Below, piece by piece: positions 8,956 to 47,375 of a DNA stretch of 64,000 nucleotides. The stretch comes from Amphiscolops sp. MND2022 (lineage: Eukaryota): NCBI GenBank assembly GCA_964187785.1, contig OZ076411.1, forward strand, positions 57,102,001 through 57,166,000, written 5' to 3'. The first letter of the stretch is position 1; each line of letters opens with the position of its first letter. The notes below the pieces were generated by a model. The model was not told the DNA's origin, ran no database searches, and worked only from the letters and a program-made list of their open reading frames with translations. Position numbers and translations under genes: made by a program.

Positions 8956-9263
8956 TAGAAACGCCACGCCTTTACACAAAATCACCACAAACACCAAACC
9001 CAGCACCAGTTGAGCCCCAAACCCACAAAAACATCAGTTTGTGAAACTGACTTAAAAACAGAAAACTCAAAACAGTTAACTCTGGAAACTCAACCCGAAA
9101 ACTTATACGAACTCTTATATGACGCACCAGACAACTACTTTCCACAAGAATCAACCCACCCCGAAATCGACCCAACCTCAGTTATCCAACACACAACAAA
9201 ACACCACGTAACAATAAAAACTTCATGCAATGATGCAAAGCAACCCCTTTTAGATGAACATTA

Positions 9264-12730: not shown

Positions 12731-13448
12731 GAGCGCATAGGCAAGCTTAATTTGCTCAAACCATAATTTTGTGCTTTCAATACCTCGGATTCCACGACCA
12801 TACCTTTAACCATGCAAAATTGGCAAATACGTCATAAGTCCCGGATTCCACGGATTTTGTCATGGATTCCAGTAACAAATGCTTAGCTGTACGCACTGTC
12901 GGCATGCCGCTGTGTCCCGGATTCCACAAAAACATAAGTTTTTCAAAACGAACCAATCAGATTGCAGAAATCATAAATTTCCTGGATTCCACTTTGTGCT
13001 TGACGCGATACGCGGCATCTCTTCTTCAATTAAGTTCAAGTGGAAGACTGAACAAACAGAATTCTATGCACTATTTTTCGTAAATAAATTCAAAATGATT
13101 CAGACTAACACACCAATATTACACAAATATTCGTATTTTTCGAAGTTTAGAACCAGTTTTGAACAAACTGCCAGATCGTCACAATCTGCCATTATTTGAT
13201 GACATGCTGCAATTTTGGTACCAGTCATGACTATCGCTCTTCGTATTTTGGGTTTTTTTGTGTCAAAACAATTTCCATTGATATAAAATTGATTTAATTT
13301 AAATTCTTCTGCCTTTCCAATACCGATCACTCAAAATCAGCGGACCAATCAGAGAGCAGCGGCGAAAGCGTCAATAGAGCAGCAGCATTGGCGTGGAATC
13401 CAGTCCCGGATTCCACGAAAAGCAGCAAAATAGCTTGCCTGTGCACTG
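12731..13448. mobile_element. Same MITE family, copy B, inverted relative to copy A and shorter
   Basis: TA|GAGCGCATAGGCAAGCT ... AGCTTGCCTGTGCACTG|TA, giving a TA target duplication. Confidence 0.85.
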
Positions 13449-18964: not shown

Positions 18965-19907
18965 AGGAGGAAGATTTGGTGTCCCTGAACCACTTCACCG
19001 ACCCTGGGATCCAGGTGTCGCAACTTCCAATGGAGTGTAAAGCTTTTAAGGGGAGTTGGAAGGAGTAACTTGAGCCGTATCTTGTTCAACTAAAACAAGT
19101 GATCTACTTCTAATGAATTAAGGGGAGTAGATTACGCAAGTGACTTCCGTTAAACATCAACTAAAACCGGACGCGCGGACAATGAAAAAATAACGAAAAT
19201 CACTTAGAAGTAAGAAACGGAAACGTTTCGAAAAAATTCTGAATCTGATCTAGAAGTTATTCTAATCATTTTCGGTTTGCAAGCCTGGCCAGCTTTACAA
19301 AAACCACAAAATCTCTGAACTGAACTAAAAATCAATTTAAAGTGAACTGAAACTTGTTAGACTTACGACGTGTCGGCTCAGGTGGCAAATCGCAACTCCA
19401 GAAATCATCCATGTGGTGTAAAGGGTGACCTTTTCGAGATCTCCGTGTTCCAGGTAAACTTGTTACTTGGTGAGGGTCCATATGCCAAAGACAAACAGAG
19501 AAGGAATGAAATTTGCGAGTGAAGAGTAAAGTTAGTGAGACACAAATACTGAAATTATGTGTGACAGTAGATGGAATGCTGATGAAGAAAAACAATTGGT
19601 TGAGGAAGGCAAAAGAAAATTGAAACTTTAGAAGTTGGAACTTTAGTTTTTTGAATGGAAACTTTACTTTGACAAAGTATTGCTGTATTAGGAACGAAAC
19701 AAGAAGGCGTGGCGTATAAATACGAAGCAAAAAAGCAACTGAAACAAGTTTCCGCAAATGTGCAAAGCAAATACTGGAATTTGATTGGCTAAATAAATGT
19801 CAATCACGTCTGCCAGCGTGATTAATTTACTCACTATAGACTTTGGATGAAAGAATACACGTGGAAATTTTACTGCAAAGCAAATTGGAACGATTTGATA
19901 TGCGAGA

Positions 19908-20072
19908 GTATGCGGCAGTATGCGGATCGACTAATGACGAGTATGCGGCAGTATGCGGAATTGCAGTGAAGACTATGCGGTATTATGCGGAATTGCAGTA
20001 TAGACTATCTGGCAGTATGCGGAATTGCAGTCGAAGACTATGCGGAAATACGCTGATCGAGTAGTGACGCAA
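19908..20072. repeat. TATGCGG array in the gap between the divergent antisense gene and ORF3 of G1
   Basis: About 8 TATGCGG copies, ending in GAGTAGTGACGC, which is also present in the LTR. Confidence 0.8.
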
Positions 20073-20289
20073 ACTCGGCATCCTACAGTTTTCGCTGTAT
20101 GCTTTCAAAGAGATGGAATTTTACTGCTAGTGGTTGGAATTGAATGAATAAGGCAGTATCACGTAATGTGATCAAGAAAGTACACACTTTCAATGACAAA
20201 CATGTGCGATAATGTTGATGTTTGATATACAAAGCCAGTGCTCTTTTGAACTTAATATGTTTGCAGAAGTTCAGACTGGTGGCAGCTCA

Positions 20290-21187
20290 TATGCTATGTC
20301 GGCGTTTGTGGGGGCAGCTGCGGTAACCCTTTTTCCACCCATTCCCCTCTTCTTCAACCCCAAAACGCCACTAACTTGTCTGGATCTCAGATTGAAGGGC
20401 AGTTAATAGAGTTAATTGACGAGCACCAAAGTCACCGGTCACGCCCCAACATCGTTTATCGACACTGAGTTTGAGGAGTCCCCTGAATTGTCTGATGACC
20501 AGGAAATGGAGGATAACCACTCATTAAATAGCTATAGTAGACCCTCCGCTACAATCTTACCAACCCCAAGAGGAAGAGGCCGAGGTAGAGGTCTGGTCTT
20601 ACGCCCAATATGAACCTATCCAACGGGGTTTTCAACAGAATCAGGGCAATTTCACTGTGATAGGAGAGAATACACAAGAAATACGAGCGAATAGTTTCAA
20701 CAATGAGTACACCAGCACACAAATTGGACTACAGATTACTAACCCAATCATGCCAACGGTCAATATTAGTAACCCCGCGACGATGATGATACAGATCCCA
20801 CCAATTATGCCCAGCTTCGCAGCAGTCCAAAGTGGTCATCCAGTTCAACCAATGCCACAGCCACAGCAAGTGACTTCAATGCAGACTAGCACCAATGACC
20901 AATGTGCTCTTGTTACCCTCAAACGAAAGGGACCTATACAAGTTGTCACCCACCGTCATGCCGACATCGCGGGATTTTGCAATTGGTGCGGTCGTACTGA
21001 CGACCAAATTGGCCGGAGAGTCTAGGAGAATATCTTCTGGGAACGGCGTACGATGCTGAGACAGTTAGGGACCGAAATATTCGGTCCCGGGCGTTCATCG
21101 ATGGGTTTGAGGTTGCCCTGTTTCGACTTCAAGTATGCAGGACTGTCGCAACCCAGGAGTTGCGTGATAGCCGTGGCCCATCAGTAA
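20290..21187 (+). pseudogene. G1 ORF3 (CxxCG-domain protein), frameshifted, ending inside the 3' LTR
   Basis: After correcting one 1-bp frameshift at ~21022, it reads CNWCGRTDDQIGRRVLGEYLLGTAYDAETVRDRNIRSRAFIDG, which aligns without gaps to G2 ORF3. The start is uncertain. Confidence 0.8.
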
Positions 21188-22687
21188 TCAACGCCAAACA
21201 AGATGGCAGCCAAAACCAACTCCCAAAGCTAGGAAGAATCAAAACTTTAAACCAGCGAACTACATTTTGTTTTGTTTATCCTGTTGGTTTTTGTCAGGAA
21301 GTCATGTAAATATAATATTTCAAAAATGTTTGCCTTGAAAGAAACCCTTCCTCATGCTGCTAATGAACATTAAAACTTCATTGACAGCCCTTATTTACAC
21401 ACACAATGAGTCACCCCTATCTCAAATGATATTGGACTTGGAAGCTTCAATACATTAGAAATCGTCCCCATATAGTAAATTGCATCTTAACATGGTACCA
21501 CTTTGCGGTATCATGCGGATCAAGGAGTGACGTATACTCGTCACCATGCGGACTTGTCGATATCATTATGCGGCATTATACGTTTCGAAGTGTGACGCAT
21601 ACTTGTCACTATGCGCTTTTTGCAGAGACACTATGCGGCATACTGCGGAACGAGTAGTGACGCATACTCGTCACTATGCGTTTCCAGCAGGACCAATTAT
21701 ATAACGTGAATACGTGTACTAGTGCTATTTGGAAAGCATCCCAAATACATTTGTTATGTTATCTTAAGCAATTTCCAGGGTTTCTTTAGTCCATTTCTCA
21801 ATGATATTTCGAAAGTCATGTAATCAAGTTGATGTTATAAGTAGTATGACGATATCTTGACGTAATCCTGTTTTTGTCTTTTTGCAACAATGACTTTGGT
21901 AAAAAAGGAGTGTCATGGTATTTTCGGAGTTATTTCATTGTGAACTGAGAGAGAGGATCATTCAAATCTCAACCGTCAACTAGTGCAGTTGTTCTCTTCA
22001 TACATCTGTAAACCTTATGGTAACATTGTGATACTCACAGATGTTGTTCTTTTGAATAGACAAGATAATTCAAATTCTTCCTCAAAAGCCAGAAACTATT
22101 TTTCACTCAAAGCAATATGGGAAACAGACGTAATAGACGTTCTAGAAAATTGGAAACCCCTTCTCCAGAGAGGGAATTAGAGAAAACGCAAGTGGAAACG
22201 TCTGTTACAGGCAAGGAGATTTCAACTAAATTGAATACGTTTGTTCAGGGAAATTCGAGTGAAAACATTTAGGAAAATCAGTTGACTGAACCCAGTCAAT
22301 TCAGCAATGAAATCCAAGTATGGACACAACTTATGGAACAAAAGAATGATGACAAAATTGAAAGAATGAGAGAAGAATTGGACAATAAACTAGAGGCTAT
22401 CTTGAGATAATTTAAGTCTAACAAAGCTACATCAACAGTAACAAACATAAGATCAGAAATCAACGAAATACAAGATTCACAACCGTGGGGATCCAAAACA
22501 ATAAGGTCAATTGGAGTTTGCATATCTAATATTGAAAACTCAGGTTCAGAAAACGACGATTATCCTCTCAGAGCTTCAAAAATGAAAGACTTGAAACATG
22601 CTGCAAATCCATTATTTCAAAACGAATCCGATGTAGACATAACGATACATTCAAACGAAGAATCCGACGCAGAAGAGGATTATCACA
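21144..22687 (+). repeat. G1 3' LTR (1544 bp), TGTCGCA...TATCACA; contains the gag start ATGGGAAAC at 22117
   Basis: Starts with the same TGTCGCA as the G2 LTR, 47 nt after the RAF motif (46 nt in G2). The end is fixed by the PBS junction at 7859. Confidence 0.75.
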
Positions 22688-22873
22688 AGTCATTTTCCGC
22701 AAATAGTGTCCGTGTCTGCTCACTAAGATGTCCCAAGAATGGCATAAACGGAATGTTCGACTATTTGAGATCCTCCCCCTCGGAAATTGAAGTACTGAGC
22801 GAGTCTGGGGGAGAATTCATAGTGGAACCGGGAAATGTACAAGAACTGGGTGAAAGATTCCGCATTGGAGGCC

Positions 22874-25334
22874 CAGCTCATATGCTATGTCGGCGTTTGT
22901 GGGGGCAGCTGCGGTAACCCTTTTCCCACCCATTCCCCTCTTCTTCAACCCCAAAACGCCACTAACTTGTCTGGATCTCAGATTGAAGGGCAGTTAATAG
23001 AGTTAATTGACGAGCACCAAAGTCACCGGTCACGCCCCAACATCGTTTATCGACACTGAGTTTGAGGAGTCCCCTGAATTGTCTGATGACCAGGAAATGG
23101 AGGATAACCACTCATTAAATAGCTATAGTAGACCCTCCGCTACAATCTTACAAACCCCAAGAGGAAGAGGCCGAGGTAGAGGTCTGGTCTTACGCCCAAT
23201 ATGAACCTATCCAACGGGGTTTTCAACAGAATCAGGGCAATTTCACTGTGATAGGAGAGAATACACAAGAAATACGAGCGAATAGTTTCAACAATGAGTA
23301 CACCAGCACACAAATTGGACTACAAATTACTAACCCAATCATGCCAACGGTCAATATTAGTAACCCCGCGACGATGATGATACAGATCCCACCAATTATG
23401 CCCAGCTTCGCCGCAGTCCAAAGTGGTCATCCAGTTCAACCAATGCCACAGCCACAGCAAGTGACTTCAATGCAGACTAGCACCAATGACCAATGTGCTC
23501 TTGTTACCCTCAAACGAAAGGGACCTATACAAGTTGTCACCCACCGTCATGCCGACATCGCGGGATTTTGCAATTGGTGCGGTCGTACTGACGACCAAAT
23601 TGGCCGGAGACTCTAGGAGAATATCTTCTGGGAACGGCGTACGATGCTGAGACAGTTAGGGACCGAAATATTCGGTCCCGGGCGTTCATCGATGGGTTTG
23701 AGGTTGCCCTGTTTGGACTTCAAGTATGCAGGACTGTCGCAACCCAGGAGTTGCGTGATAGCCGTGGCCCATCAGTAATCAACGCCAAACAAGATGGCAG
23801 CCAAAACCAACTCCCAAAGCTAGGAAGAATCAAAACTTTAAACCAGCGAACTACATTTTGTTTTGTTTATCCTGTTGGTTTTTGTCAGGAAGTCATGTAA
23901 ATATAATATTTCAAAAATGTTTGCCTTGAAAGAAACCTTCCTCATGCTGCTAATGAACATTAAAACTTCATTGACAGCCCTTATTTACACACACAATGAG
24001 TCACCCCTGTCTCAAATGATATTGGACTTGGAAGCTTCAATACATTAGAAATCGTCCCCATATAGTAAATTGCATCTTAACATGGTACCACTTTGCGGTA
24101 TCATGCGGATCAAGGAGTGACGTATACTCGTCACCATGCGGACTTGTCGATATCATTATGCGGCATTATACGTTTCGAAGTGTGACGCATACTTGTCACT
24201 ATGCGCTTTTTGCAGAGACACTATGCGGCATACTGAGGAACGAGTAGTGACGCATACTCGTCACTATGCGTTTCCAGCAGGACCAATTATATAACGTGAA
24301 TACGTGTACTAGTGCTATTTGGAAAGCATCCCAAATACATTTGTTACGTTATCTTAAGCAATTTCCAGGGTTTCTTTAGTCCATTTCTCAATGATATTTC
24401 GAAAGTCATGTAATCAAGTTGATGTTATAAATAGTATGACGATATCTTGACGTAATCCTGTTTTTGTCTTTTTGCAACAATGACTTTGGTAAAAAAGGAG
24501 TGTCATGGTATTTTCGGAGTTATTTCATTGTGAACTGAGATAGAGGATCATTCAAATCTCAACCGTCAACTAGTGCAGTTGTTCTCTTCATACATCTGTA
24601 AACCTTATGGTAACATTGTGATACTCACAGATGTTGTTCTTTTGAATAGACAAGATAATTCAAATTCTTCCCCAAAAGTCAGAAACTATTTTTCACTCAA
24701 AGCAATATGGGAAACAGACGTAATAGACGTTCTAGAAAAATGGAAACCCCTTCTCCAGAGAGGGAATTAGAGAAAACGCAAGTGGAAACGTCTGTTACAG
24801 GCAAGGAGATTTCAACTAAATTGAATACGTTTGTTCAAGGAAATTCGAGTGAAAATATTTCGGAAAATCAGTTGACTGAACCCAGTCAATTCTGCAATGA
24901 AATCCAAGTATGGACACAAATTATGGAACAAAAGAATGATGAGAAAATTGAAAGAATGAGAGAAGAATTGGACAATAAACTAGAGGCTATCTTGAGATAA
25001 TTTAAGTCTAACAAAGCTACATCAACAGTAACAAACATAAGATCAGAAATCAACGAAATACAAGATTCACAACCGTGGGGATCCAAAACAATAAGGTCTA
25101 TTGGAGTTTGCATATCTAATATTGAAAACTCAGGTTCAGAAAACGACGATTATCCTCTCAGAGCTTCAAAAATGAAAGACTTGAAACATGCTGCAAATCC
25201 ATTATTTCAAAACGAATCCGATGTAGACATAACGATACATTCAAACGAAGAATCCGACGCAGAAGAGGATTATCACAAGTCATTTTCCGCAAATAGTGTC
25301 CGTGTCTGCTCACTAAGATGTCCCGAGAATGGCA
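22874..25334 (+). repeat. Tandem copy of 20283-22744 (ORF3 + LTR 23735-25277 + 57 bp of flank)
   Basis: Offset 2590-2591 bp, about 99% identical by eye; 129-bp unique spacer at 22745-22873. Confidence 0.95.
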
Positions 25335-26901
25335 AAGAACGAAATCACAATTGCAGTTGCGGAGAACCTAAAAGCAGACCGAAAGCAAACCGGAACAGCC
25401 CAAGTCGGCGCCCCGCTCACGTTTCAAAAATATTCAGTTTTTAAATATGCAAAATGGCACTTTTGTTAAAGTTTCATCAAATTTACAGTTCCAAAAAAGA
25501 CGCAGAGGATATGCATATGACTCAAAAACCACTTTTTCCCCAAATGGAAATGGCAAAAAAACCTTTACCGAAAAAAACTATATCTTGCTCAACCGAAAAC
25601 TTCTCAAAAAACGAATAATTGAAACAATCACAAAAAAATGTCGGACAGTATTGATTTCAAAAAAAAAGGGTTTTTCAAAATCCATCCTGTTGCAAAATAT
25701 CAAAAAAAATGTATGGGGACTTTTCGAGACAATAAAAAGTTTTTGAAAAAGTCTTCCAAAGCCGAAAGGGAAAGAAAGCCGGGTGGAAGTCTTGCAGTGC
25801 CAAAAGAGTGGAAAGGGGACCCCTTTTGCTTTGGAATGGTTGCGTATTTCATGTTAGAGGCTTTGAATGCTTTCAAAATCAAGTACACGTTTGGTAAAAG
25901 TGCACATTGCACAAAAAGTGGACCGAATATTTGAAATAACGAAAAACAACTAGCCACTGTAAGAGTCGTGCTTTTTCTTCGAAAACGCGGACTAAAAATT
26001 ACATCAAACCATAATGCTGAATCACAGGGAATAGATTTTACATTTGCCAATTTTACATCGGATATTTTCTCTGTGGGCGTCTGTACACACTCTGTCATGT
26101 TACCTTTCTACATATTATCCTTGTGGCACGATGGTCTTACTTTTCATAAAAACACTTGAGTTCATCGAACTACACAAATTACCAGACAATACTGAATATA
26201 GCAAGGAAATAGATGCGGAAACTTTTTGTAATGCAAGCTGCGGTTAGAACCGTTATCCAGCTTTTCCATATTTGGGAATCATGCGAAGCCATGTCTATGA
26301 ATTTGTTACTTATAGCTATGAGCGTTGTATTATTGGATTAGCCATCGAAGGTACATATATTTGAAATTATTTGCAAACAGGTTAACCAGTTGAGTTCAAC
26401 CGTAACTGGGTTAAATCGGTATAATTTTCATGCTTCAAAAATGTCCTTCAGCAAAAGATACACATTTATATATTGTGGAAATGAAATAATTGTATTCGAA
26501 ATTGTGATACATACGTGCCATTGAGAAAAATTCCCCTTTTCAGATTAGGAGTTTATGTGTACTTACGTCAATAATTTACAAAACTAATTTGATGCATGAG
26601 AAAATATACATGGGACAGGACTGAGATTTCTAATTAAAGTCTCAAACAGAGGCCACCAAGTAAGAATCAAAATTGGCTGAACACCTATCAAATCAAGGTG
26701 TTGTCAGCTCTTTTTCGCACAAATGCATTATTTGAAGTTTTGAAATGCTTTCTTCAAAGTTTTTGAATATGTTCATCAACATGGGATTTGAAAACACACT
26801 TCCTCGAAAACACACTTTTGGAAATTTGCGTGTGTGAATTTTGGAATTCGGCTGTATTTCAGGTGAGGTTGACGATGGGATTTTAGGCAGCATTTACTTA
26901 C

Positions 26902-31992: not shown

Positions 31993-32694
31993 TTACTTTA
32001 ACATGTATGAAAGAACACCATAAGCTCCAAAAAGGATGACGATCAATAAATGGTGGATGCCGTAACCGTCGTCTTCATCACTATGATAAGAATCTACTGA
32101 ATTCTCTCTCTGACGATTTATATGGTTACTATTCGTCCCTACTGTCCTAGGGAAGTCTTTCTTGACGTCCAGGGACGTTTTCCCAGCGATTTGTTGATGC
32201 GGTCCATCTGACCTTAGGTCCCTATGTGGACGTACTTGTTCAAAAATTTTCGGATGCGGTCCATCTGACCTTAAGTCCAAATGAGTATTTTGGCTTTCTA
32301 ACACGTTCCTGATGCTAGGAATCACTTTCCCTTCAATTGCTGAGTCTATTGCATTTAAAATATGCGAATTAAGATCAGATCTCATTTCTTCTAATTTCCT
32401 GGACATTTGCGAAGAAATTTCTGAATTTATTGCTCTACTAGTTTCAACTGTAATTTCACTATTTTTACTTGCATTAGTATTCAATAAAGTCCTAAAATTC
32501 CCACTAATTGAGTTTACTTCCTTGTTGGATTTCCTTGAGTCTAAATTTAGACCAGTATCGCTAAGGTTTTCATCTCTAACTTGATCACTCTCTTGGTAAT
32601 TTCCCAACATTATATCTAAATTCTCAATATCTGACATAACGTCTGATTGTCTGGAACGCTTCTCTCTAGCTTTCTGCTTTCTAGTCGAAGGCAT
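31993..32694 (-). CDS. LTR-encoded Gag N-terminus (212 codons) reading out of the 3' LTR into flanking DNA
   Basis: Near-identical to the first 212 aa of gag up to DEDDGY, then continues GIHHLLIVILFGAYGVLSYMLK* in the flank. Expression is unknown. Confidence 0.6.
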   Translation of the reverse strand: MPSTRKQKAREKRSRQSDVMSDIENLDIMLGNYQESDQVRDENLSDTGLNLDSRKSNKEVNSISGNFRTLLNTNASKNSEITVETSRAINSEISSQMSRKLEEMRSDLNSHILNAIDSAIEGKVIPSIRNVLESQNTHLDLRSDGPHPKIFEQVRPHRDLRSDGPHQQIAGKTSLDVKKDFPRTVGTNSNHINRQRENSVDSYHSDEDDGYGIHHLLIVILFGAYGVLSYMLK

Positions 32695-33436
32695 AACAAT
32701 GGATTTGATGTTTCAACAGTGAATTCACTAATATCAATGTCAAATCAAAGTAGTCGTGTATCGTATATCAGTAATATCAATAATGATCCTTTCAACAACG
32801 GGTTCCTGGTATATATAGTTGCAGGACCATGACAATCATTATTTGGGACGTCAAGGTCCGAAAATATACGTGACGTCATGTTTACTATAAGTAGCTGAAG
32901 ATACACTACACGTCATATTACGTCAGCAGCTATAAATAGAATTAGAACAAGTTTAACTAGCTAACAGGCAACTTTGGTGACTACATGTGCATGACACTAC
33001 GTCATGTCAAACTAAACTAATCAACGGTTGAAATGCATGAAGAGGCATGGTGACCTAACGTCAGAGTGACTGCACTAAAGCACTGTGATTATAGGTAGCA
33101 CCGTATATATATGAACACTGTATGACAACGCGTCAACTAGACTGCAACGGCGAGTAGTTGACGCATTTTATTTAACATTATGGCAAACAAAAAATATTGC
33201 AAGTACTTTCATGGGGTCAACGTGACCTTAGGTCAAAACAGTAAGATAACTGGTTTCATGACTAAATGATTGCTAAATTGGATTAATATTGACAATTTCT
33301 TGTAAAACAATCTACATCAATCGTAGTTTGAGTTGTTTTAGTTTCTACAGTGGGAGCACTCCGGGTGCGGGACCAATTTGGAAGTCTTCGGGCATGACTT
33401 GATATAGCAAACCGTCACAGGCGGCAGCCTGCGACT
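32058..33436 (-). repeat. G2 3' LTR (1379 bp)
   Basis: Matches 46009-47344. The first base is T>A mutated; a short purine run (GGGGAA) lies upstream as a weak PPT. Confidence 0.95.
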
Positions 33437-34160
33437 TTCCCCGGGGGACTAAGATAAATGAGCCTGCCCGCATTCCCGCCTGGAAAGCTCGTCTTCTTGC
33501 CATTCTTTGATCATACGATTCTCCACTGACGTGCGATCCTTCAAGATACCCCAAGGTAATTTCTTCCTTGATCTCAGGGTATGATTTACCACATACAATG
33601 CATCCAGAATGGCTAGTATCGTTCGGTTGCCCGCAGTAGCTGCTTACGGAAATTGCCAATCCTGTAATATGCCGATTCTGTACCCACTGATCGGTTCTTT
33701 GGTCATGGTGTTGTTGATGTTCATAATGGTAGTAGGGCATTTGATCAGCAAGTGGCGGTGACGCCGGGGACTGTATTACTGGATCAAGCTGACTACATTC
33801 CGCAATTGGATGATGTGCGGAATCTTGGGCACAATATGTGGCTGGTGGGTGTCCTACGGCCCAATTGATTAGATCGTCAGAAGGTTCCGTGAAGGTATCA
33901 ATCGTTTCTAACAGAGAATCAGCAGGCAAGTTGAAGTCATTGAGACTTTGGGTCAGACTTGTAGTCATTGCTCGACCAGCAACTAGTTGGGGGAGAAATG
34001 GGGGCTTTTCATAGTAACAAGCTAATACCTGTATTTCGTCATCTTCTTCTTCTTTGTCCAAATGATCTTGCACTGACGTCACTGAATCCACTTCCATGTC
34101 CTCATCGGAGGACGCATATGACAGACTTGGGCGACCTTCTATGGGAAATTGTAGTGCCAT
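33345..34160 (-). CDS. G2 ORF3: intact ~271-aa protein (acidic N-terminus, Pro/Gln/His-rich middle, CxxCG domain), C-terminus encoded in U3
   Basis: Open frame 34289-33345. Probable ATG at 34160, downstream of an acceptor-like TTCTTCTCAG. Homologous to G1 ORF3. Confidence 0.8.
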   Translation of the reverse strand: MALQFPIEGRPSLSYASSDEDMEVDSVTSVQDHLDKEEEDDEIQVLACYYEKPPFLPQLVAGRAMTTSLTQSLNDFNLPADSLLETIDTFTEPSDDLINWAVGHPPATYCAQDSAHHPIAECSQLDPVIQSPASPPLADQMPYYHYEHQQHHDQRTDQWVQNRHITGLAISVSSYCGQPNDTSHSGCIVCGKSYPEIKEEITLGYLEGSHVSGESYDQRMARRRAFQAGMRAGSFILVPRGKSQAAACDGLLYQVMPEDFQIGPAPGVLPL

Positions 34161-35976
34161 CTGCTCACTATATCGGCTGAGAAGAATTTTCTTAGCAATT
34201 TTGATTTCAGAGGAAGTAGGACTGATTTTAAGGTATGTTTCGATGAGAATGGTGTATTGGGGTTGTTTTGACTTAAGGTCTAACCTCAAGATTTGCGGGA
34301 AAATGGAAAGGAAAGCCCCGCGAAGCGTCTCCTTAAATCTTCCTATTTAGGGTAGAACTGAATGAATAAGTCATCAACAATTTAGTGGTCGTGTCACTTA
34401 ACGAGGTGTGAAGCATCACTTAAGATTATTTGCCTTCCTTCTTCAAAGGCTCATAAAGCGGTGTTGGCCAGTAGCAGAAGTCTTGACTGCTATTAGCGTT
34501 TGTCAACAACGCAGTTCAAAGACTGATGGTCGGTCTGACTACCTCGTTTGTGGTAACCAATCAGGTGAATTTGGAGTAAAATACGATTAGTCGGAGATAA
34601 TTGAAGATTCGCTATGATTTAACCAATTTTCTGGAGGCAAAGCCCTAGTGAAAGTGTACCTATAATATAAAAGAATAAATGTACAAATGGATCATGTGAT
34701 AGATTTTAGACAGTAATTCGTGGTTAAAATGGTAGTACTCCGCTGGCAGGTCGGGTACCCATGTTCAGTGTAAAACATTTCAACAGTAATGTGTTTAAGG
34801 TACTGGCGTAATGGTAGATTATAGCCACGACTCTCTATTTAAGGTTATATACAGTGCCAATTTTAGATTGTACGTGAAGGGATACTAATAAGTGTGATGG
34901 CGGATGAGAGGTATTTAGGGTAATTGGCCGTGGTATTTGGTGCAGTCAATTATACCAAAGGTCCAGTAGTGGAAATAAGGTCTGATAATTTGATGGTTGC
35001 AGTCCCAATTAAGATGAGTCTTATTTCATGTAAAACGTACATGCATGCATTATGGTGCAGTCCTTTTGACCATTGGTCATTTATAGTGAAGCTGATCCAC
35101 CTCTTCTGGGAATTGAATACATGTATTCGTTTACAGTCAAGGAGAAGTATTGTCTGATTACGTAAGCAATGCTAGGTAAATAATAGGCAGCGTTCAACTG
35201 CGAGTACATTGTGACTAAACAAATATACCATATTATTGACAAGCAGCAACAGAAATTACGTCATTTGAAAGCTGTACCGTAGGTAACGCAATTGTCTATA
35301 TGTTTGTTCTGCTATTAGTACAGTTTCAATTCCAAGTGACTTGTGGTAATAAATCGCAGTTTCCAAGTAGCATCACTTAAGCTGTATCAATTTCTTCTGG
35401 AATTTGATATTGTCTTTCTGACCTTGGGACAGCCTTTTATCCTCATTTTCCTTATGATCTTTCGGAGTCACCGACATTCATAACACTGCTGTCAGTTTGA
35501 CCTAACGTCATTTGAACGTAGTTTCGTTTCAACTCCGTCTAATTGAATAATTCAATTGTCCCTATTTTACGTCTCTGGGATTGAACTACTGCGTTGTTGT
35601 TGATTCGACTGAGGACAACCGTGTTTCTCCAAACTATTTTAATTCTGCTTCTTTTGAATTGTAAATACAAATTAGCCTTGCGTTTATCCTCTCTGGGATT
35701 ATCTCTGGTTCTGGATTGTCAACCGGACTGAAGGTCACATCACGTATCTTCGCTGGAAGGAGCTATCACGACCATTTGATACGACAAATTACTGCCACAA
35801 TAGAGCGGAATTCAGACCTCCCGTCATCGAAGTATCTTCAGGTTGGTTCTTTTTAAGTGTTAAAATCTAGCTTGATCAGGGCTTTCATTTAACTAAGTTT
35901 CTTCCTCCATCGTGAAAACGTACTTAGATGTGTGAAATTTTAAATCTACTTCCGGAAGTTGTTTGAATGCGGTAAG

Positions 35977-38900
35977 ATGGATACTTTTGCAGGAAGCGAA
36001 CCGCGATTATTCATTTCCTTTCATTTAGAAAACGAAGCAAATGGCCAACCAGCTCAGGAAGCAGAAGAAATCATGGACACTAGCTCTCCCAATTTAGCAC
36101 GTAGAGAAAGAGGTGACAGTACATCAAGTGATGAAATCGAAGTGATCGAGATCACTTTATCCAGTCCCGAATGTACAAACGTTGAGTTAACTCGTCCGCC
36201 TGTTGTGTCAGTAAAAATTGAGCCGGAGATCACGGAGTCACAATTAGTCGCTGAAATCCGAAGGAGAAGTGGATTTTCAAGTAACAGCAGTACTGGCTCT
36301 GACGAAAGTTGCGGAGCATACCTGACAAGAAAACTAGGCGAGTTGGAAAAAGCAGCACAGCCAGAAGTTTCAAACGAGACCACTAGTGAAGTCAAGCAGA
36401 GTGAAAGTGAGCCAATTATTCTTCGTCCCGGCCGTAGCCCGACAGCTGGGGTAACTGTTGAACCTCCCAGGAATCAGGCTCCCTCTGGACTGACACAGAC
36501 TCTTTCCCTGGCCAAATTTATTGGCACAACCTCTAGCCCTGGTGATAAGGGTAATAAGCCAGGTGAATCGGCTGACTTCTACGAGTTCACATTTGCTCCA
36601 GCACCAAAACACAAATCCGTCCGCAGTGAGGGAGAATGCCGTCCAAATGACCCTACGTCCTCGGGCCAGATCAGGCACTTCGTAACTGAGACCCAATCAG
36701 TAAGTGGAACTGAAGTCCCAATGTTGAGTGATCATGACTCTACCCGATACGCGCGGTCAACATTGGCAGAAGCACTGGCACCTCCCGAGGTTTAGAACAT
36801 TCCTTATGATAGTGGTGAATCTGACTATGAGTCGACTGTGCGGATACCTACAGCAGCAATTAGGGAGGCTCCTATTTCCATTAGTAGCAAGGAAACACTC
36901 CGCAAATGCTTCAGTGAGACAAATCCCATAAGTCTTGCACAAGGGCACCCGACCGTGGCGTTTAACCAGGAACAGATGTGCCAAATATTGAAAGTGTTTG
37001 CTGACGAGACGGCTAAATCAACCTTTAGGATGATGAATAGTCTCATCGAGAAAGCTAGTCGACTTAATTTGAACCAGGGCCCCTACGCTTCCAATAGCAT
37101 GCATCGACCCAAATCTTTTCAATCGACGTGTACTGATTCAGAAACTGACCGTTATAAACTGCGTCACAGGACCCCGACTAAACAAAGTGACTTTTAGGAC
37201 ACTGATTACTCATGCGAGCAAACTCCCAGTCGAACGTCAGAGGTCAACATCCCAAGTCCTCCAGTACCTGGTTGCAGTCGAGATGACCCTCGGTCTCCTG
37301 AGTTAGGGCAAACCATAGACAGTCCAGGAGCTCAGACTTTAGCCGAGTTAAAGCGAGAAGCGGCAATGAGTAAAAATAAAGGAAAAAGGAATTCTAAGCG
37401 CCCAAACAGTTCAAAGACAAAGAAAGCAAAGAAGTCCGTGTGGAGGTCTAACAAGGTGATGCGCGAGGAATTATTTGAAGGCATGGGTTGAGCAAGAACA
37501 TTCGTTTCTGGACCAATGGACCCCAAATGGAACCCCTACAAGTTTTACTGCCAAATTTGTAAGGGAAATGTATCTATCTACGGCAGAGGTGCTAAGGAAA
37601 TACTCAGACATCACGCAACAGAGCGACACCTGCGCAGGGACCAACGATGGCGTTACGAACACCTGTCAGTAGAAGATCCAGCCACAAAAACATTTCGTCA
37701 CTACGTCAGTGATAAGAATGGTAAACTTTTGACACCTTACGAATTGGAACTAGAGTATCCGAAGTTCAAAGACAAAGCTCTTGTCGACATTGGTGAAAAG
37801 CTACCATTTTACGACGAGGCCATGGCAGGCAATACCCACATGACGTCTTCGTCTGAAAGCAGAGTACGAGTACAGATTTCGATTTTGGGACACTTCCTAC
37901 CTAACTTCGGTGACCTCAGGTCAATGCGCAGCTTGTGGCAGGACATAGGAATCGTCGTCAACCATCAAGCCTTGTTCTCTGACTTCAACTGGGGAAAAGA
38001 ACGCCTCTCAGTAAGTCCTCATGAAACAACTTGATCTTTTGATATGTTGGTACTTTCCACAAATCATGTATCACTTTACGGTACTGCTGTTCTGAGCTAA
38101 GGTTACTACTCGAATCCCCTCATTAGCATTCCGTATTTGTGTTTTCAGGTCCTGTTTCATCACATATTCGTGCGGATGCTGGATGACCTAGGACACTACA
38201 TCGTGGCTGAAGGGCAATTTGCTGTAGAATTTGAATTGAAAGGTCTGTTCCTCTTCTTGCACTTGCGATTCTGGCGCGACAATCAGCTATGCCGTGTCGT
38301 CTTGAAAAGGACAGGGCGAACTGTCGGAAAATTCCAAGCTGAAAAACACCTTTTCTTCAGCCTCTTGGGAGCCATTTCAGCACGACCCAATCCAGTTTGT
38401 GCCAGTGGATGTTCACTTGAGTTCGTTCAAGAACTGGACGAGGGTCCCTTGTTCACATTTGGGGTGCAAAGCTTCAAACGCTTTGACGAGGTGTCACTGG
38501 CCAAGATGATGCACAAGGACAGTTATTCCGTTTTTGGGCGAATTGACTTCTTTTCCGTACTGAAATATCTCGTCGTCTCGCTCGGAGGCAGCCTGGACAT
38601 GGAGTGCGTCTTGCTAGCCCCCGAGTTATCCAAGGTTAGGATCTTCCATTGTTTTGGGTTTTCATGCCTGACTTTGGGTCTCAATGCTTGGGTTGTTTAT
38701 AGGCTATCAGAACATGCCAACTAGACGTTTCCAAACTCCATGTACTCTGTCAGGAATTGTTGAAGCACTGGAAGTCGATCGTGGAGTTCCTCACTGCGCA
38801 TTCGCCAAAGCAGCAGATGCAGGGAGTACACAACCAGGTTGGGATTAAGTCAAATAGACCTTTGGTCAAACATTCAAATTCCTTCACAGCGATCAAATGT

Positions 38901-40144
38901 CTCTTGTTTCCAGCCCCAGAATTTGGAGGGGTCGATTATTGGAGATGAGCTCTTCACCAGCCGACTAGGGCTTTTCCAACGATTGACACGGGATTGTTAG
39001 TTTTCTCCTTTCATTTCATGCGCATTTTATCTCATCGAACTGACCTTTGGTTTGTTTAGATGCTAACGCCTTTTCACTCAGTCTGTCGGGCCGGAGGGAT
39101 AGATCCTTTTATACGTATCGTCAACTCTGCCAATTTCTTTACAAACTTGCGCGACGATGTTCCACGCCACAAGATTTGCCTCCCGAGGAAAATTGGCCCG
39201 AAATTCTCAATTTGGAGTTGAGTACCACAACTGCGCTCAGTTTCACAATTTTTCTTTCCCGAGCCAAGTTTGGTTCCAAGTTGGATGCCTGCAAAATCAA
39301 AGCTGGACTTGACAGATTAGATAATTCCAACGCAGGGCTGTCCATCGGCACACTGTCCAATAGAAATAAAGAGGAGTTTGGAAGGGCAGCACGCAGTTAC
39401 GTCACCTTTTTATTTATTTCATTTCAGGAACTGAAGGGGCTAACTAATGACCTCGTTAAAAACTTGGGTTGCTTTGATTTGGAGATCCTTTTGCTTGGAC
39501 CCATTGCACACGCAACTTACTGTCATGCTCAATTATTTACCAGTTTCCGATTACGAGGCTACTTTACTACAGATCAGGAGACTGCAAGTGGTGAAGAATA
39601 TTTGTCTTTCCTGGATGATCTGAGACGTACTTATTCAGAATTGGCGCAGCCTACTTTACTGATTCCTGACACTGTTAAATTTCATGTTGAATTGCCTTCC
39701 CTGCATAGTCGTCCTTTGCTCTACAAACTTTTTCGTTTGGCGTGTTTGTGCCTAGATGAGCCGTTTCCTGTTCTGCCCAGTGTGAAATTTGGATCAGTGA
39801 GTTCTGACGATCCTACTAGCAGTCTTATTGACGAGATTTTACCCGTCCAGTCTTATTTTGCCAATGTACCTCACAGTATTGATGCTGTTACGACCGACCA
39901 ATCCGTATCTGATTTCCTTCGTCTAGAACCTGATTTCGCTGATGGCGGACTGAGTGATACATATTGTCCCTGGCACAGTGTTAACGTCTTTGGACGTTCC
40001 AAAATCCTTGAACAGCTATCTTCCGATCGTAGTAGGCCACAAACTTCTGTCAGTTTTGCTGTCAATAAAGTTGTTGAGAGCAGTAAGTCTCACGGGACGT
40101 CCAAGTCATCTCCCAAGAAGAGCAGTAAGCGTCCTAGTCAATAG
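35977..40144 (+). pseudogene. G2 antisense accessory gene, 5 exons (35977-38010, 38149-38634, 38703-38837, 38914-38995, 39060-40144), ~1270 codons, with three premature stops in exon 1
   Basis: All introns are GT-AG (138, 68, 76, 64 bp) and the frame is continuous after splicing. Zinc finger Cx2Cx16Hx5H at 37549-37629. In-frame stops at 36793, 37195 and 37489. The start codon is uncertain and the original stop may be at 40210. Confidence 0.88.
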
Positions 40145-40406
40145 TCCCCTAATAAAGAAGTGGTTCCATCCGCGAAGGCCTTGTTGACTCCTAGTAGCTC
40201 TAAAGTCTAATTGTACATAATGTACAATTGTGTGCTATATTTTGTATATTTGTTGGTTTATTTCTCATATTTATGTTCTTGTATTATCTGTTTGCTGTTT
40301 GGTTGAGTTTTGTCATTAATTTCGTTCAGCTGTGAGTCAGATCAGGCCCCATAAAAATACAAGTTGTTGAAAGAAGAACCACGGGGCAGTAAATTCAGTT
40401 TTCCTT

Positions 40407-43400
40407 CTAGTATCTGTGTTCATCAGTAAAGTTTGGAGTAGGGTTAGGACGTAGATTATATTTTCCTCCCCTGGGACTTTCATTTTCTACAACCATTTCA
40501 TCACTTTCATTGCTTTGCGGTCATAGTATTCTTTGTACTTTAAGTACGACTGCATGATGTTTTTCTTCGTTTTATCGATCAGAATTTGTGTACGTCGTTG
40601 TAATTCTTCGGCAAAATCCGTTGTTGGGAGAATTTTCGGGTTGGGATTTAAGCCCAACCGGTGGTCTAGAATGTTATACGGTACTCTTCCATGGAAAATT
40701 CTGGAAGGTTCGCATCCTAGACTTGAATGATAGGTCGTATTGTAGTTGAGGACAGCCAATGGTAGATACTTGTGCCATTGGCGACGGTATTCACCGGAAG
40801 CCATTTTTAGGTTGCCCTTAAGACTGGCATGAGTTCTCTCTAATTTACCTATCGTCTGAGGATGCTTCGTCGTTGCACATTTGATCTGAATACCCAGAAT
40901 TTTTGCGACCTCGTCGACTAGACGTGAAGTAAAGGCTGTTCCTTTGTCAGTAATCAGAGTTGTTGGTAAATATGCATGCCTTGTCATAATATCAATAAGT
41001 ACTCTTGCGGTACTAGAGGCTGAAGCGTCAACTACAGGATAGGCGAAGAGGTATCTTGAGAAGACATCCAGAGCAGTAATGACATTTTCATATCCCCCAC
41101 TCGGTGGGAGGTTAGGTAAAAGGTCAATTTGTAAGGCGTCTTCAGGACCAAGATCCCATTCAGGTAAATTAAGTAGTTCAGGCGTGATTGATGGGTTTTT
41201 GATTCTTTTGTCTTTTATGCAGATTTCACATCCTTGGACCTACTTTTGACGCTTTTTGCTATTCCAGGGTAGTAATATTTTTGACGAATTTCATAAAGCA
41301 TCTTGGAGATTCCTGGATGTTTATTCGTCATTCCATGTAGTGAGTGGAGTAGCTCCGACACAAGGTGTTTAGGTAAGAGCGCCTGTCTGTATAGGACTCT
41401 TCCTGTTTCGTCATAGTAGTCTCTAGTGACAACGTCATCCTGAACGGACAGACGGTCAATTTGACTGCAGTAATGTCAGAAGCGCGAATCTTGATGTAGA
41501 ATTGTTTCAGAAGATTCTTCTTTCTGCAGTTTGAGGCGTAACTGGTGTAAAACCACGTCGTTTTGTTGCTCAATAGCCATGGTGGTAGAAGTTGACAGCA
41601 TCTGCAAACTTGTCATTTGTGAAGAAGCACCCCTGTGGGCACTGAGTTTCTCTAGGGAGATATCAGGTAATTGATTTGTTGGATGAGACCTGGCGTCCTT
41701 TTTACGTTGCCAGATTTGTTCCTCAGTTTCCTCATCCTCTTCAGTGTAGAAAATTTGGTCTTCTTCTGTCACTCCGGCCGATTGGACGTTGAGTTCAATG
41801 GGAGTGGTTGATATATCTTCGCGTATACGGAGTACAAGTTTTTCTTTAGGACAAAGCTCCAAACGAGACAAATAGTCTGCTGCGGTGTTATTTTTGCCTG
41901 GTATGTGGGCAATTGTGAAACTGAACTGAATAACGTAGTCACACGCGTTCCACAGGGTTGGTGGAATGATTTTAGTTTGGAAAAAGCGAGTGACCGACTT
42001 GTTGTCTGTTAGGATTATCACCGGTTTCAGGGTCCCCCAAAAGATATGCCCAAATTCCTTGAATGCGAAGAATATCGCTAAGAACTCTTTCGCTTAGATA
42101 GACATTTTCAGTTCGGTGGGACTAAAGGTCTTGGATCCATATGCTACGGGTGCGAAAGACTTTCGCGTTGAAGTATACTTCTCACTTGGATCGTCCTCGA
42201 TGAGAACTGCGTAACCTGTCGCCAAGAAGCTAGCATCAGTCATTAATGCTATCTGCTTATTAGGCAGAGGTTGTTTGAGTGCAAGTTCACAACATCGGTC
42301 AAGAGCTTTGTTGATCTCGGTGAATTGTTCTAACAGATCGGGTGTCACTATGACTTTGGCATCGTTTTTCAGTAGTTTGAAGAATGGTGTAAGTTTCTCT
42401 GACAGCCTTGGGATATAATTGCGATAATAATTGAGGAATCCCAAGTATCGCTCGAGAGCCGTTTTGGTTTTGGGAAATTTGGTCTTCTCTAGGAAGTTTT
42501 GGACTCTGGGTCGTTGTGGCCGCACTCCTTCAGGAGTGATGGTACGTCCCAGAAAGTCGATTTCCTTGGCGCCAAAGTGGCATTTGTGCATCGTGAGTTT
42601 GAGACCTGCAGTCCGGGTGCACTGAAACGTAGCTGTAAGGTTTCGAATCAGCTGCTCAGCAGTGTTTGCCGCGATTCCGATATCATCGACGTCCTGTGCG
42701 CATTGGTCAGCTTTGATCACCTTGTCTAAATAGCTCGAAAAAGCAGAAAGAGCTCTGCTGAGACCTTGCGCCAATCTGCGGTATGCGAATGTCCTGCTAG
42801 CAAAATTGAATGCAAGCATCTCGATGGACCTCTGGTCCGCCATTTGTAGACAATGATATGCCTGCGAACAATCTAATTTACAGAACAGGCGTTTGCCTGC
42901 CATGTGCTGTGCGGCGTCCGTTAAAGTACTCAAAGGATGATTGTTGTTGATATAATCATCAGAGATCAAATATTTGATCTTGCGAAGATCGACCAAGAGT
43001 CGTAATTTGCAATTTGGTTTTTTCTGGGCAAAGATTGGACTTGCATATTTAGAGAATGGAAGTGTGGTTATGATTCCATATCGATGTAGGAGGGCTATTT
43101 CGACGAGAATATCTTCTTTGAGATTAATTGGCGTTAGAAGGCTTTGACTATAAGCTGGGGATTCGTCTTTAGGTGTGAGCTTGACCTTGAATTCCTCGTT
43201 CATGCCTATATCAAATCGGTGTCTCGCAAATATGTCATGAAATTCGCCGAGTAACTCTTCAATTTGGGTGATTTCAGCTGGTTGCAACGTAGAGTCTGTC
43301 CAGTCAAAATTGGCAAGGAATTGGTTTCTAGACTCAGGGTCATCCTGAGGGTTGAGTTTTTCCAGTTCCTGGAGGTTTTGTAGTTCCTTCAGGATTCGTT

Positions 43401-44860
43401 GCTGAATCGGGGTATGGAGCTGAGGGTCTCCAGGTTCTTCTGGTGTAGGAAACTAGTAGTTTTCTTGGTCTTCCCCAGTCCCTGTAGATTGAATCAAACT
43501 GCTTGCGTAATAGGCAGCATTTTCTGGATTATCTTGCAGGAGGTGCCATGTGGTAACCGCGTCAATGGGTTTGACGTACTTCATTTGCTCTGGCGTCATG
43601 ACAGAAAAAGTGGCAATGTCCGAACCCCGTTTGAGGGTATATGGCTGATCAGTGAAATTATTCACGTGGATCGAAACCTGACCTTGGGTCAGTGTGACTA
43701 GAGCGGCGCAAAAGGCTATATCACCGTCCTCAGTGAGGGCGTTGCTCAGTTGGAGGATTCCGGTGACATTAGTGTCAGCATATATATTGGAGTACATGGA
43801 GACCACGTGTCTGTCATTGGGCGGGATAATATTGTCCTCGCGTATAGTGACAGGTTCCATGACGTTAGTGTACTTGTGGTCCGCTGTCTTCAACTGCATA
43901 GAAAAGAATTGGAATATTAAAACTCCCTGCCTCATGTCCAATATAGTATTATTCCTTTGAGGAATGAAAGACCAATTAGCGGACTTGTGAGCCTTTCCAT
44001 GACTATGAATATCTCGTGGAATTCGATGTCCCCGACTTCAAATTTGAGTTCAACAGTGCTCTTTGGGGTTTCCAGTTGTCCATTGGCAACCATTATCTGG
44101 AAGTTGGGTGCTGGTCCCTCTTTGACTATCGACTGGGGGGCTAATAATCGGATTTTACGTAGATCAGCTTCTGGGATCGCACTAGATAGAGCTCCCGTGT
44201 CTACTAGGCCATCTAATGTTAGTTCGCCAAAATCCATGGGAAAATAAAGCATACGTCTCTTATACTTTAGTCCAAGATTTGATGTCAACGGAACATAATC
44301 GGGTTCACCGTCTCGTGAGATTAGGATGTTCACAAATCGTTCCTCTACGGTTGCAGTCAATGTGACCACAGGTCCATTTTGAGAGAACTCTTTCGGTGGG
44401 TCTTCCTGAGTGACCAAATTGGTGGCAGCCCATTCCTCTTGCCAAGGGTCTACGAGAGCCTTGGTCAGAGCTGGGTTGAGATTTTTGTCGATTTCGTTGG
44501 AATCTAGTTCTGTTTCCAAAGGGTTTTTGTGGAAATTGGTATAGAAATGGAGGTGATGTTGGTTGTAGATCTGAGCGTCCCAACAAGGATCGAAACCGAG
44601 ATCTTTATCGCGGTAGTATAGGTTATAGTCATCTATAGGAGGTAGAGGTCGGATAGTAGTAGTATTACCTTGCAGTCTGTCGGACTGATGGTCCAAGTCA
44701 ATTAAATTGGTGGGAGTATTTTTCACCTGCTGCTGCCAGTCAGCTGATGAGTTTGCTTTAAGGGATGAGTAGTATTCGATGTAATATATAGTAGAAGGGT
44801 CAGAAATTATGTACTGTCTGACGCGTAGTTTACCATTAAAGCAGAGTCGTGGCGAATCTA
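40407..44860 (-). pseudogene. pol: G2 pol (protease, RT, RNase H, integrase with C-terminal deletion)
   Basis: LVDTGA; RLLVDLRK, FAYRRLAQGL, DVDDIG (YVDD mutated); MTDASF; HPGISKM; TDKGTAF...KLERTH; ends KYNLRPNPTPNFTDEHRY*. Confidence 0.95.
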
Positions 44861-44867
44861 GTTTTTT
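44861..44867 (-). promoter_or_regulatory. Predicted -1 frameshift slippery site A AAA AAC before the gag UAG
   Basis: The -1 frame is open from this site through the protease ORF to 43932. Confidence 0.75.
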
Positions 44868-45994
44868 GGGTTTTTGAGGATAGACGTGGTGGGTTTGTTA
44901 TTGTTGGAGTCATCTTGACTCATAGTAGTTTCTCCTGGTTTGGAATTTTCCAAATTGAGGTTTTTGGGCTTGAGGTGAGCTCCAGCGCCTTTCCAACATC
45001 GTTCCGCCGGGTGATTTGTTTTGTCGCAAGTCGGACATTTTGGATATTCTTTCTTGGTGTCCTGCCCTTCAATGCGGCGTTGTTCCTCCTTTCTTTTGAG
45101 TTTGCGGCAGTCGTCTTTGACATGCCCGGGTTTTTTGCAGTAATTGCAAGTAATTTTTGGGTCAATGCCAGATGAGAGGAGGCCAGTACCCGGTCGTGTT
45201 GTTGTCGGGGCTGTGGACATTGTGGGGACGTGGATGTCGTCGCTTTCCTCAAGTCCATTCAACTCCAATTCACGTTCGAGGTGTGTGACAATCTCTGCGT
45301 AGGTCGCATTTTCAAGTCGCGCCATATTGACTGAGCGTTTCAGTTTGGGCGGCAGTTTAGCATAAAGCAGACTGTCAATCATTGCTTGAGCATGTTCCCT
45401 AAAGGCTTTTTCAGCTCCTTGGTTAAGTTCTTCAAGGAAATCGGGCAATTTCATAGTATTCGGGTCAAATACTAGTTTATGCCACTTGTGTTTGGCAGTT
45501 GCCTGAGACTCAGCTTTGACATATTTCCTACGGAAGACCGCTAGTATATCTTCCAAGGTTTGTCAATTGGTTGAATTGATGTTACGGAATGTCTGTAGAG
45601 CGTTTTTGCGTAGCAATGAGTGAAAATGGTTGATTTTCATTGTTTCCGTGATGTCTGGTTGCATTTTTATCATCGTATGAAAAAGATCTTCAAACAGTTC
45701 AAATTTTTCAGATTTGCCATCAAATGTCAGTGTTGTCGTACTAAATGGTCGTACCATCAGTGTCTGTGCTGATGGTTTGTTGTTCATACCCATAATCACG
45801 TCAGCAAGTCGATTAATGGGGTCTATTGTTGGTTCGGAAGGTACATCTCGGTTATTGGTGGGGACTGTTGGGAATTGCGCCGGGATGGTTGTGTCAAGCG
45901 TATCGTCGGTGACACACTGTTGGTGTGAACTTTTATTTCGAAATTGCATGGGCCGTCCGGTCAGGAACTCAGGGACCATTTGAGGGGTAAGGTT

Positions 45995-46008
45995 GGCTCC
46001 TGTTACCA
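45995..46008 (-). promoter_or_regulatory. G2 primer-binding site TGGTAACAGGAGCC, translated within gag as MVTGA
   Basis: Immediately follows the LTR end ...TTACGACA. Confidence 0.9.
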
Positions 46009-47344
46009 TGTCGTAACCGTCGTCTTCATCACTATGATAAGAATCTACTGAATTCTCTCTCTGACGATTTATATGGTTACTATTCGTCCCTACTGTCCTA
46101 GGGAAGTCTTTCTTGACGTCCAGGGACGTTTTACCAGCGATTTGCTGATGCGGTCCATCTGACCTTAGGTCCCTATGTGGACGTACTTGTTCAAAAGTAT
46201 TCGGATGCGGTCCATCTGACCTTAGGTCCAAATGAGTATTTTGGCTTTTTAACACGTTCCTGATGCTAGGAATCACTTTTTTTTCAATTGCTGAGTCTAT
46301 TGCATTTAAAATATGCGAAGTAAGATCAGATCTCATTTCTTCTATTTTCCTGGACATTTGCGAAGAAATTTCTGAATTTATTGCTCTACTAGTTTCAACT
46401 GTAATTTCACTATTTTCACTTGCATTAGTATTCAATAAAGTCCAAAAATTCCCACTAATTGAGTTAACTTCCTTGTTGGATTTCCTTGAGTCTAAATTTA
46501 GACCAGTATCGCTAAGGTTTTCATCTCTAACTTGATCACTCTCTTGGTAATTTCCCAACATTATATCTAAATTCTCAATATCTGACATAACGTCTGCATG
46601 TCTGGAACGCTTCTCTCTAGCTTTCTGCTTTCTAGTCGAAGGCATAACAGTGGATTTGATGTTTCAACAGTGAATTCACTAATATCAATGTCAAATCAAA
46701 GTAGTCGTGTATCGTATATCAGTAATATCAATAATGATCCTTTCAACAACGGGTTCCTGGTATATATAGTTGCAGGGCCAAGACAATCATTATTTAGGAC
46801 GTCAAGGTCCGAAAATATACGTGACGTCATGTTTACTATAAATAGCTGAAGATAGACTAAACGTCATTTTACGTCAGCAGCTATAAATAGAATTAGAACA
46901 AGTTTAACTAGCTAACAGGCAACTTTGGTGACTACATGTGCATGACACTACGTCTTGTCAAACTAAACTAATCAACGGTTGAAATGCATGAAGAGGCATG
47001 GTGACCTAACGTCAGAGTGACTGCACTAAAGCACTGTGATTATAGGTAGCACCGTATATATATGAACACTGTATGACAACGCGTCAACTAGACTGCAACG
47101 GCGAGTAGTTGACGCATTTTATTTAACATTATGGCAAACAAAAAATATTGCAAGTACTTTCATGGGGTCAACGTGACCTTAGGTCAAAACAGTAAGATAA
47201 CTACTTTCATGACTAAATGATTGCTAAATTGGATTAATATTGACAATTTCATGTAAAACAATCTACATCAATCGTAGTTTGAGTTGTTTTAGTCTTCGGG
47301 CATGACTTGATATAGCAAACTGTCACAGGCGGCAGCCTGCGACA
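46009..47344 (-). repeat. G2 5' LTR (1336 bp; ~42-bp deletion relative to the 3' LTR near 47293)
   Basis: TGTCGCAGG...GACA; the deletion is flanked by AGT microhomology. Confidence 0.95.
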
Positions 47345-47375
47345 GTGGATGATGAATGTCATTGTAATTCCGAAA

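Follow-up and report, generated by a model that had tools for sequence, protein, structure and literature searches.

Where does a spliced gene that lies on the wrong strand of a retrotransposon come from, and what might it do there? The question is raised by a 64-kb window of contig OZ076411.1 (positions 57,102,001 to 57,166,000, Amphiscolops sp. MND2022), part of the 1.07-Gb eukaryotic assembly that we searched, in which a Gypsy long terminal repeat (LTR) retrotransposon, G2, carries between its pol gene and its 3' LTR a five-exon gene running antisense to pol. An earlier note on this DNA had proposed that the antisense protein is a catalytically dead hAT transposase, taken over by a class I element as a DNA-binding regulator or targeting factor. 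The present analysis indicates that the gene likely descends from a hAT transposase; it is neither an active hAT transposase nor a hAT transposon, and in its build it resembles a hAT protein domesticated for DNA binding. Its parts in the window are as follows.

35977-40144, plus strand: antisense gene, five exons, between pol and the 3' LTR of G2
35977-38010, plus strand: exon 1, with a Ser/Thr/Pro/Glu-rich region of ~510 amino acids, a basic cluster, the zinc finger and a helical segment; putative start codon
37549-37629, plus strand: Cx2Cx16Hx5H finger CQICKGNVSIYGRGAKEILRHHATERH, spaced as in one hAT clade
38149-38634, plus strand: exon 2, predicted RNase H-like core (AlphaFold model of a G1 copy, fold searches, residue table)
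38218-38235, plus strand: FAVEFE; the first-Asp position (38233) is Glu in the window copy
38398-38409, plus strand: CASG; the second-Asp position (near 38410) is Cys in the window copy
38703-38837, plus strand: exon 3, a helix with a conserved Trp (LLKHWKSIVEFL, 38757-38792), start of a likely insertion domain
38914-38995, plus strand: exon 4, with a phase-1 donor
39060-40144, plus strand: exon 5, helical region and basic tail, no catalytic-Glu motif, ending in RPLLYKLFRLACLCL (39710-39754)

The window copy gives a reading of 1273 codons, in which motifs lying in different frames are joined through four GT-AG introns; the motifs quoted in the earlier note (the finger, FAVEFE, CASG and the two later segments) were all recovered at their places within this one spliced reading. 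Three in-frame stops (36793, 37195 and 37489) interrupt the copy, all in exon 1 and upstream of the finger, and exon 1 forms open frames of 700-765 codons in many other copies. In the predicted product, ~500 residues are disordered, acidic and rich in Ser/Thr/Pro; 13-15 Lys/Arg make up a basic cluster, and the finger and the scaffold complete the protein. The Cx2Cx16Hx5H pattern is kept in 61 of 64 spliced copies, with near-invariant Cys and His, in a residue table that excluded copies with more than two stops and three loci with mis-called exons (L094, L119 and L128).

Three exon searches of the own genome, with G2 and G1 queries, returned at least 150 scored matches each, from 7873, 6821 and 2314 candidates, and we fetched 80 loci from four subfamilies (G1-G4), partly chosen for open frames rather than sampled at random. 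When the window copy is added to these loci, pol is found on the opposite strand and downstream of the antisense gene in 79 of 81, and the antisense open reading frame (ORF) is conserved between pol and the 3' LTR in most copies, as are accessory ORFs of LTR elements. In 34 of 37 G1/G2 copies, every one of the four introns has GT-AG borders (four disrupted loci, L006, L013, L025 and L040, having been removed beforehand), intron positions are identical in G3 and G4, and four remote database homologs without intron 1 align gap-free over the predicted exon 1/2 junction. Database entries of the intron-1-less kind include P0143, P0158, P0163, P0160 and P0206. The ratio of nonsynonymous to synonymous substitution rates (dN/dS) is 0.05-0.12 in seven of the eight measurable pairs and 0.49 in one near-identical pair, 11 of the 19 pairs compared being saturated at silent sites. 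In quick trees with 26 rows each, the gene and pol alike separate G1+G3 from G2+G4 with a support of 100, a split across which the antisense gene is 19-21% and pol 57-58% identical; of 30 well-supported splits in the pol tree, only 15 are found again in that of the gene. The gene is therefore real, under purifying selection and co-descended with pol, and its capture by a class I element is upheld by genomic context, selection and shared descent. A profile search yielded 1068 clusters at an expectation value (E) ≤ 0.001, and the family probably extends beyond this assembly, since the best own-genome matches of one homolog (P0158) are only 28-37% identical to it. A scan of JGI metagenomes gave 259 pattern matches, none of them confirmed, and a query with exon 5 for longer spliced database proteins found none.

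As to the origin of the gene, descent from a hAT transposase is supported by a finger match, a predicted RNase H-like fold with Hermes as the top Foldseek match and an ordered similarity of the C-terminal half, taken together. A host hAT family was located by a search for the hAT finger motif, and 22 full-length relatives of this family, used as controls, match Hermes (E 4e-7); the finger spacing Cx2Cx16Hx5H occurs in 19 of these 22. With hhalign, the finger of the antisense protein matches this hAT clade at 87.5% (E 3.6e-6), a match that was not blind and that drops to 34% with a shallower alignment. Judged from its sequence, the protein carries the N-terminal BED-like zinc finger expected of a hAT derivative, Pfam zf-BED itself giving no match. 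The AlphaFold model of exon 2 from a G1 copy is RNase H-like, so that the core fold of hAT transposases is predicted for the protein, and Hermes (8edg_A) is the sole Foldseek match at E ≤ 0.001 (E 2.1e-4, 330 columns) among 350,542 chains, with four further Hermes entries among the matches listed. Four non-overlapping segments of the C-terminal half fall in order on the hAT clade, at hAT positions 323, 345, 444 and 517; their scores add up to 76.7, vs a maximum of 68.6 in 116 nulls, of which two were ordered. No ordered match came from the pol alignment or from two shallow alignments made for other hAT groups. With Atlas, the best cluster for an intron-less homolog was DUF659 (0.76), a domain which we take to be linked to hAT, and this serves as a lead only. 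On the finger, the fold and the C-terminal order, the hAT scaffold that had been proposed is supported. The host family itself (L105-L108; G000:C1:19964086 and ten other sites) is of low copy number, is internally deleted in the examined loci and shows the finger spacing of the antisense gene.

The carrier and its neighbors are laid out as follows.

32058-47344, minus strand: Gypsy (Ty3-type) LTR retrotransposon G2, 15.3 kb, delimited by its LTR pair, target-site duplication and Pfam domain order
46009-47344, minus strand: 5' LTR, holding the first third of gag and followed by a sequence resembling a primer-binding site
32058-33436, minus strand: 3' LTR
40410-46663, minus strand: gag and pol (protease, weak dUTPase, reverse transcriptase, RNase H, integrase), interrupted in the window copy by stops and frameshifts
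33345-34346, minus strand (sense to pol): ORF3, second accessory ORF, acidic, with a late CxxC, oriented away from the antisense gene
15399-18296, minus strand: decayed G1 antisense gene of the same five-exon layout, in a G1 element at ~7424-22687 with pol on the plus strand

G2 has the LTRs, the target duplication (5 bp, 32053-32057 / 47345-47349), and the gag followed by protease, reverse transcriptase, RNase H and integrase that define Ty3/Gypsy elements, its Pfam domains (zinc knuckle, protease, reverse transcriptase, RNase H, integrase) standing in Gypsy order. The LTRs of the window copy measure 1.3-1.4 kb and are 94.7% identical to each other; in ten full-length copies covering all four subfamilies they are 99.6-100% identical, which points to recent activity. 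Across the family, LTRs span 1.3-1.9 kb, and the location of the first third of gag inside the LTR leaves a gag fragment in every 3' LTR. The weak dUTPase-like segment (43456-44037, minus strand; Pfam E 0.007) lies between protease and reverse transcriptase. ORF3, which has 286-357 codons in the same ten copies and no Pfam match, is separated from the antisense gene by a spacer of ~1.5 kb across which the two diverge. In the G1 element of the window, the 3' end holds a 2.5-kb tandem duplication (20283-25345, 98.9% identical), and pol is interrupted by long inverted repeats (9349-10294 / 12728-13423, 82-91%) that are probably insertions of another repeat. The finger of this G1 copy does read CRVC and has Gln in place of both His, and the gene does contain YSLAM followed by a stop, as had been reported, but neither Gln is typical of G1: at each of the two sites, His is present in 15 of 16 other G1 copies, so that the Gln/Gln finger is decay of this one copy.

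If the finger recognizes DNA, repeats within the element are candidate targets. In G1, CCGCATA occurs 23 times per element vs ~2 expected, in clusters located in the LTR, in the spacer upstream of the gene and in intron 4; a related CAGCATA array is present in G3, likewise in LTR, spacer and the one long intron of the antisense gene (intron 4 in G1, intron 2 in G3), and no repeat rose above shuffles in G2 or G4. The LTR repeats on which binding was to be tried according to the earlier note are accordingly confined to the G1/G3 branch and missing from the G2 element with which that note dealt. CCGCATA/CAGCATA arrays lie at window positions 16358-16564, 19909-20039, 21567-21632 and 24157-24222, and at loci L029, L033, L078 and L080. 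The BED finger of Hermes binds short subterminal repeats, and does so in an oligomer (PMC10368747).

On balance, and with moderate confidence, we favor an account in which a captured hAT gene would be kept as a DNA-binding regulator or anti-silencing factor of the element itself. An ancestor in the Gypsy clade would have taken up, in antisense, a hAT transposase gene that was nearly complete, and its descendants would have retained it by purifying selection as an accessory gene without a conserved DDE site. The product is predicted to bind DNA via its zinc finger and would probably regulate the transcription of the element or shield it from silencing: the finger would provide sequence recognition, the dead RNase H and insertion domains would form an oligomer scaffold, and the acidic disordered region of 500 residues could be the effector domain. 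An internal promoter, located in the 1.5-kb spacer that the gene shares with ORF3, might drive its transcription, and the introns would have survived reverse transcription because of the antisense orientation: they do not lie on the strand that is packaged as RNA, and the genomic RNA would remain unspliced there. A bolder version can be put forward tentatively, as a possibility that we would not count on: that a class I element domesticated a whole class II transposase, which became an essential factor acting sequence-specifically against silencing or as an activator, that its finger co-evolves with internal repeats (the CCGCATA-type arrays of G1/G3), and that the gene helped the clade expand to thousands of copies and is found beyond this genome.

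The same hAT-derived dead scaffold might instead act as an integration-targeting tether, its finger binding host sites and recruiting the integrase complex. The conservation of finger and scaffold would suit such a role, as would the long integrase C-terminal tail found in pol frames of ~1700 codons, and hAT transposases engage both DNA ends and target DNA. However, seven target duplications that were read differ from each other, copies are spread across all large contigs, and a protein made from a separate antisense transcript, as predicted here, would be uncoupled from Gag-Pol, so that we regard the tether as unlikely.

The hAT ancestry that a regulator and a tether would share has itself to be weighed, for each of its signals is weak alone and a series of results speaks against it. 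Pfam scans of the window exons, alignment members and homologs returned no hAT or BED family, PF05699 (hATC) did not match the antisense protein, and PDB sequence searches with element profiles gave 0 matches. Without its finger, the protein matches hAT at 1.9% in hhalign, a value reached by 1 of 40 shuffles, and segments over residues 51-300 mapped incorrectly on hAT. The low-confidence model of exon 5 had no fold match, other RNase H-like folds rank above Hermes in VIA-align, and Hermes was missing among the best 50 rows of a second-look VIA run. The element profile had no score against host hAT frames located by PF05699, and Atlas found no usable match for exon 2 of the window. An hhalign value of 51-55% was not counted for the C-terminal half, because the score falls to 27.5 without the finger. 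One could imagine a selected accessory factor that is not hAT-derived, in which a C2H2 finger is joined to an RNase H-like domain supplied by a host gene or by a different DDE superfamily. The lack of Pfam and PDB sequence matches, the unmatched exon-5 fold and the commonness of RNase H-like folds, some of which outrank Hermes in VIA-align, would agree with it, and the profile comparisons covered hAT rather than other DDE superfamilies. Against it, the finger spacing and profile, the top Foldseek match and the ordered C-terminal similarity all indicate hAT, and the pol and two shallow other-hAT alignments produced no ordered match; we deem a non-hAT origin quite unlikely.

Whether the antisense protein could still be an enzyme depends on its catalytic positions. 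Active hAT transposases carry CxxH and RW motifs, and each of D, D, C, H, R, W and E is present in 21-22 of the 22 hAT controls. The catalytic triad of Hermes is D180, D248 and E572 (PMC2533014). Among the 64 element copies, the first-Asp column holds Gln in G1 (16/16), Glu or Val in G2, a mixture in G3 and Glu in G4 (Q, E, V or N overall), such that the claimed change of the first Asp into Glu applies to the window G2 copy and to G4 but not to G1, and in G2 only in part. The second Asp is replaced by Phe, Cys or Ser throughout, in line with the claim that it is absent, although the TNG of G1 invoked for it aligns after strand 5, in the CxxH region. Neither CxxH nor a third-Glu motif appears in any subfamily, acidic residues reach 75% in no column of the RNase H strand region in these copies, and the TRW site as placed by hhalign reads D/E, then mostly W (7 of the 9 rows shown). 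SxA..ER.FS is absent from the element alignment, as had been said of SSA..ER.FS. From these alignments, the antisense protein is predicted to lack the conserved catalytic residues, with neither the D, D, E triad nor the CxxH and RW motifs of active hAT enzymes, and an intact DDE in good copies, which would contradict the reading of the protein as catalytically dead, is found in none of the 64. No convincing inverted pair flanks the gene, which sits inside LTR elements in 79 of 81 loci and is not framed by the terminal inverted repeats and 8-bp target duplication of a hAT transposon.

A remodelled metal site, making the protein an active nuclease or transposase-like enzyme in the cycle of the element, is improbable. 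In its favor, G2 and G4 have a Glu that either occupies the first-Asp position or precedes it by two residues, and in every subfamily an acidic residue follows the second-Asp site at a distance of 1-3 positions (G3 15/15, G1 16/16, G2 17/19, G4 12/14); these positions were mapped by alignment and may be off by one or two residues. However, the first site is Gln in all 16 G1 copies, the acidic residues occupy differing columns at a helix start, no subfamily has a CxxH or third-Glu motif and no terminal inverted repeats surround the gene; the acidic residue is probably a helix cap, with a small chance of a remodelled site. Finally, a hAT transposon nested in one retrotransposon and carried as a neutral passenger might explain the three stops of the window copy and the presence of matching hAT elements in the host genome, but this barely credible reading is refuted by dN/dS values of 0.05-0.12, along with conserved splice sites and a constant position across subfamilies with 57% pol identity.

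Among known systems, the antisense gene can be compared first with its presumed source. The hAT clade (finger C..C...FS(I/V)..GG, PTRWLS; host loci L106 and L108; P0121-P0142; Hermes being the solved member) has the same finger spacing, Cx2Cx16Hx5H, and probably the same order of finger, helical segment, RNase H-like core, helical region and putative hATC-like helix. The antisense gene departs from that clade in several respects: D, D, E, CxxH and Arg are not conserved, the N-terminus is longer by ~500 disordered residues, four introns interrupt the gene, terminal inverted repeats are missing, and it is mobile only within the LTR element.

In position, a close parallel is provided by the antisense ORFs of plant Gypsy elements (Retand, Grande, RIRE2; TRP28/PF04195), which likewise lie between pol and the 3' LTR in most copies, have been proposed to be nuclear or DNA-binding regulators and, in the portions of these reports that we cite, show no similarity to other transposons or host genes (PMC7264820, PMC11963269). 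TRP28 is described there as a short domain without an assigned role, whereas the evidence here points to a hAT scaffold of several domains whose gene has spliceosomal introns, and PF04195 had no match in Pfam scans of the antisense gene. The origin of antisense accessory genes of LTR elements is mostly unknown according to the part of PMC7264820 considered, which states that a nested insertion is not supported by any resemblance to other transposons. The case described here would, with the high probability that we attach to hAT ancestry, give one such gene a traceable origin in a DNA transposase, and its zinc finger and internal repeat form a testable pair. It also suggests that large retrotransposon families can conceal spliced genes that Pfam misses.

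The plant mobile domain (PMD; MAIL1/MAIN) is common to Gypsy and MULE elements (PMC5418596), VANC, which probably derives from the host, counteracts silencing (PMC13547354), and a role in the control of silencing has been proposed or shown for PMD/VANC; neither is a transposase, and capture went from host genes to MULE elements. Bdelloid LTR elements likewise carry extra genes, a dUTPase and captured ORF3 genes (DEDDy exonuclease, GDSL esterase), captures that retroelements share with one another, and the abstract names no class II transposase (PMC5408684). Our literature searches turned up no description of a hAT-derived gene retained by an LTR element; Repbase, most subscription journals and supplements lay outside their scope and could contain one. 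The locus may be a rare case of one transposon class domesticating the enzyme of another. ZBED genes are host-domesticated hAT transposases. In DAYSLEEPER, also host-domesticated, the hAT scaffold is reused as a DNA-binding regulator (PMC3499209), much as we propose for the antisense gene. The difference lies in the owner, which is a host locus for DAYSLEEPER and ZBED and, here, another transposon with thousands of candidate copies.
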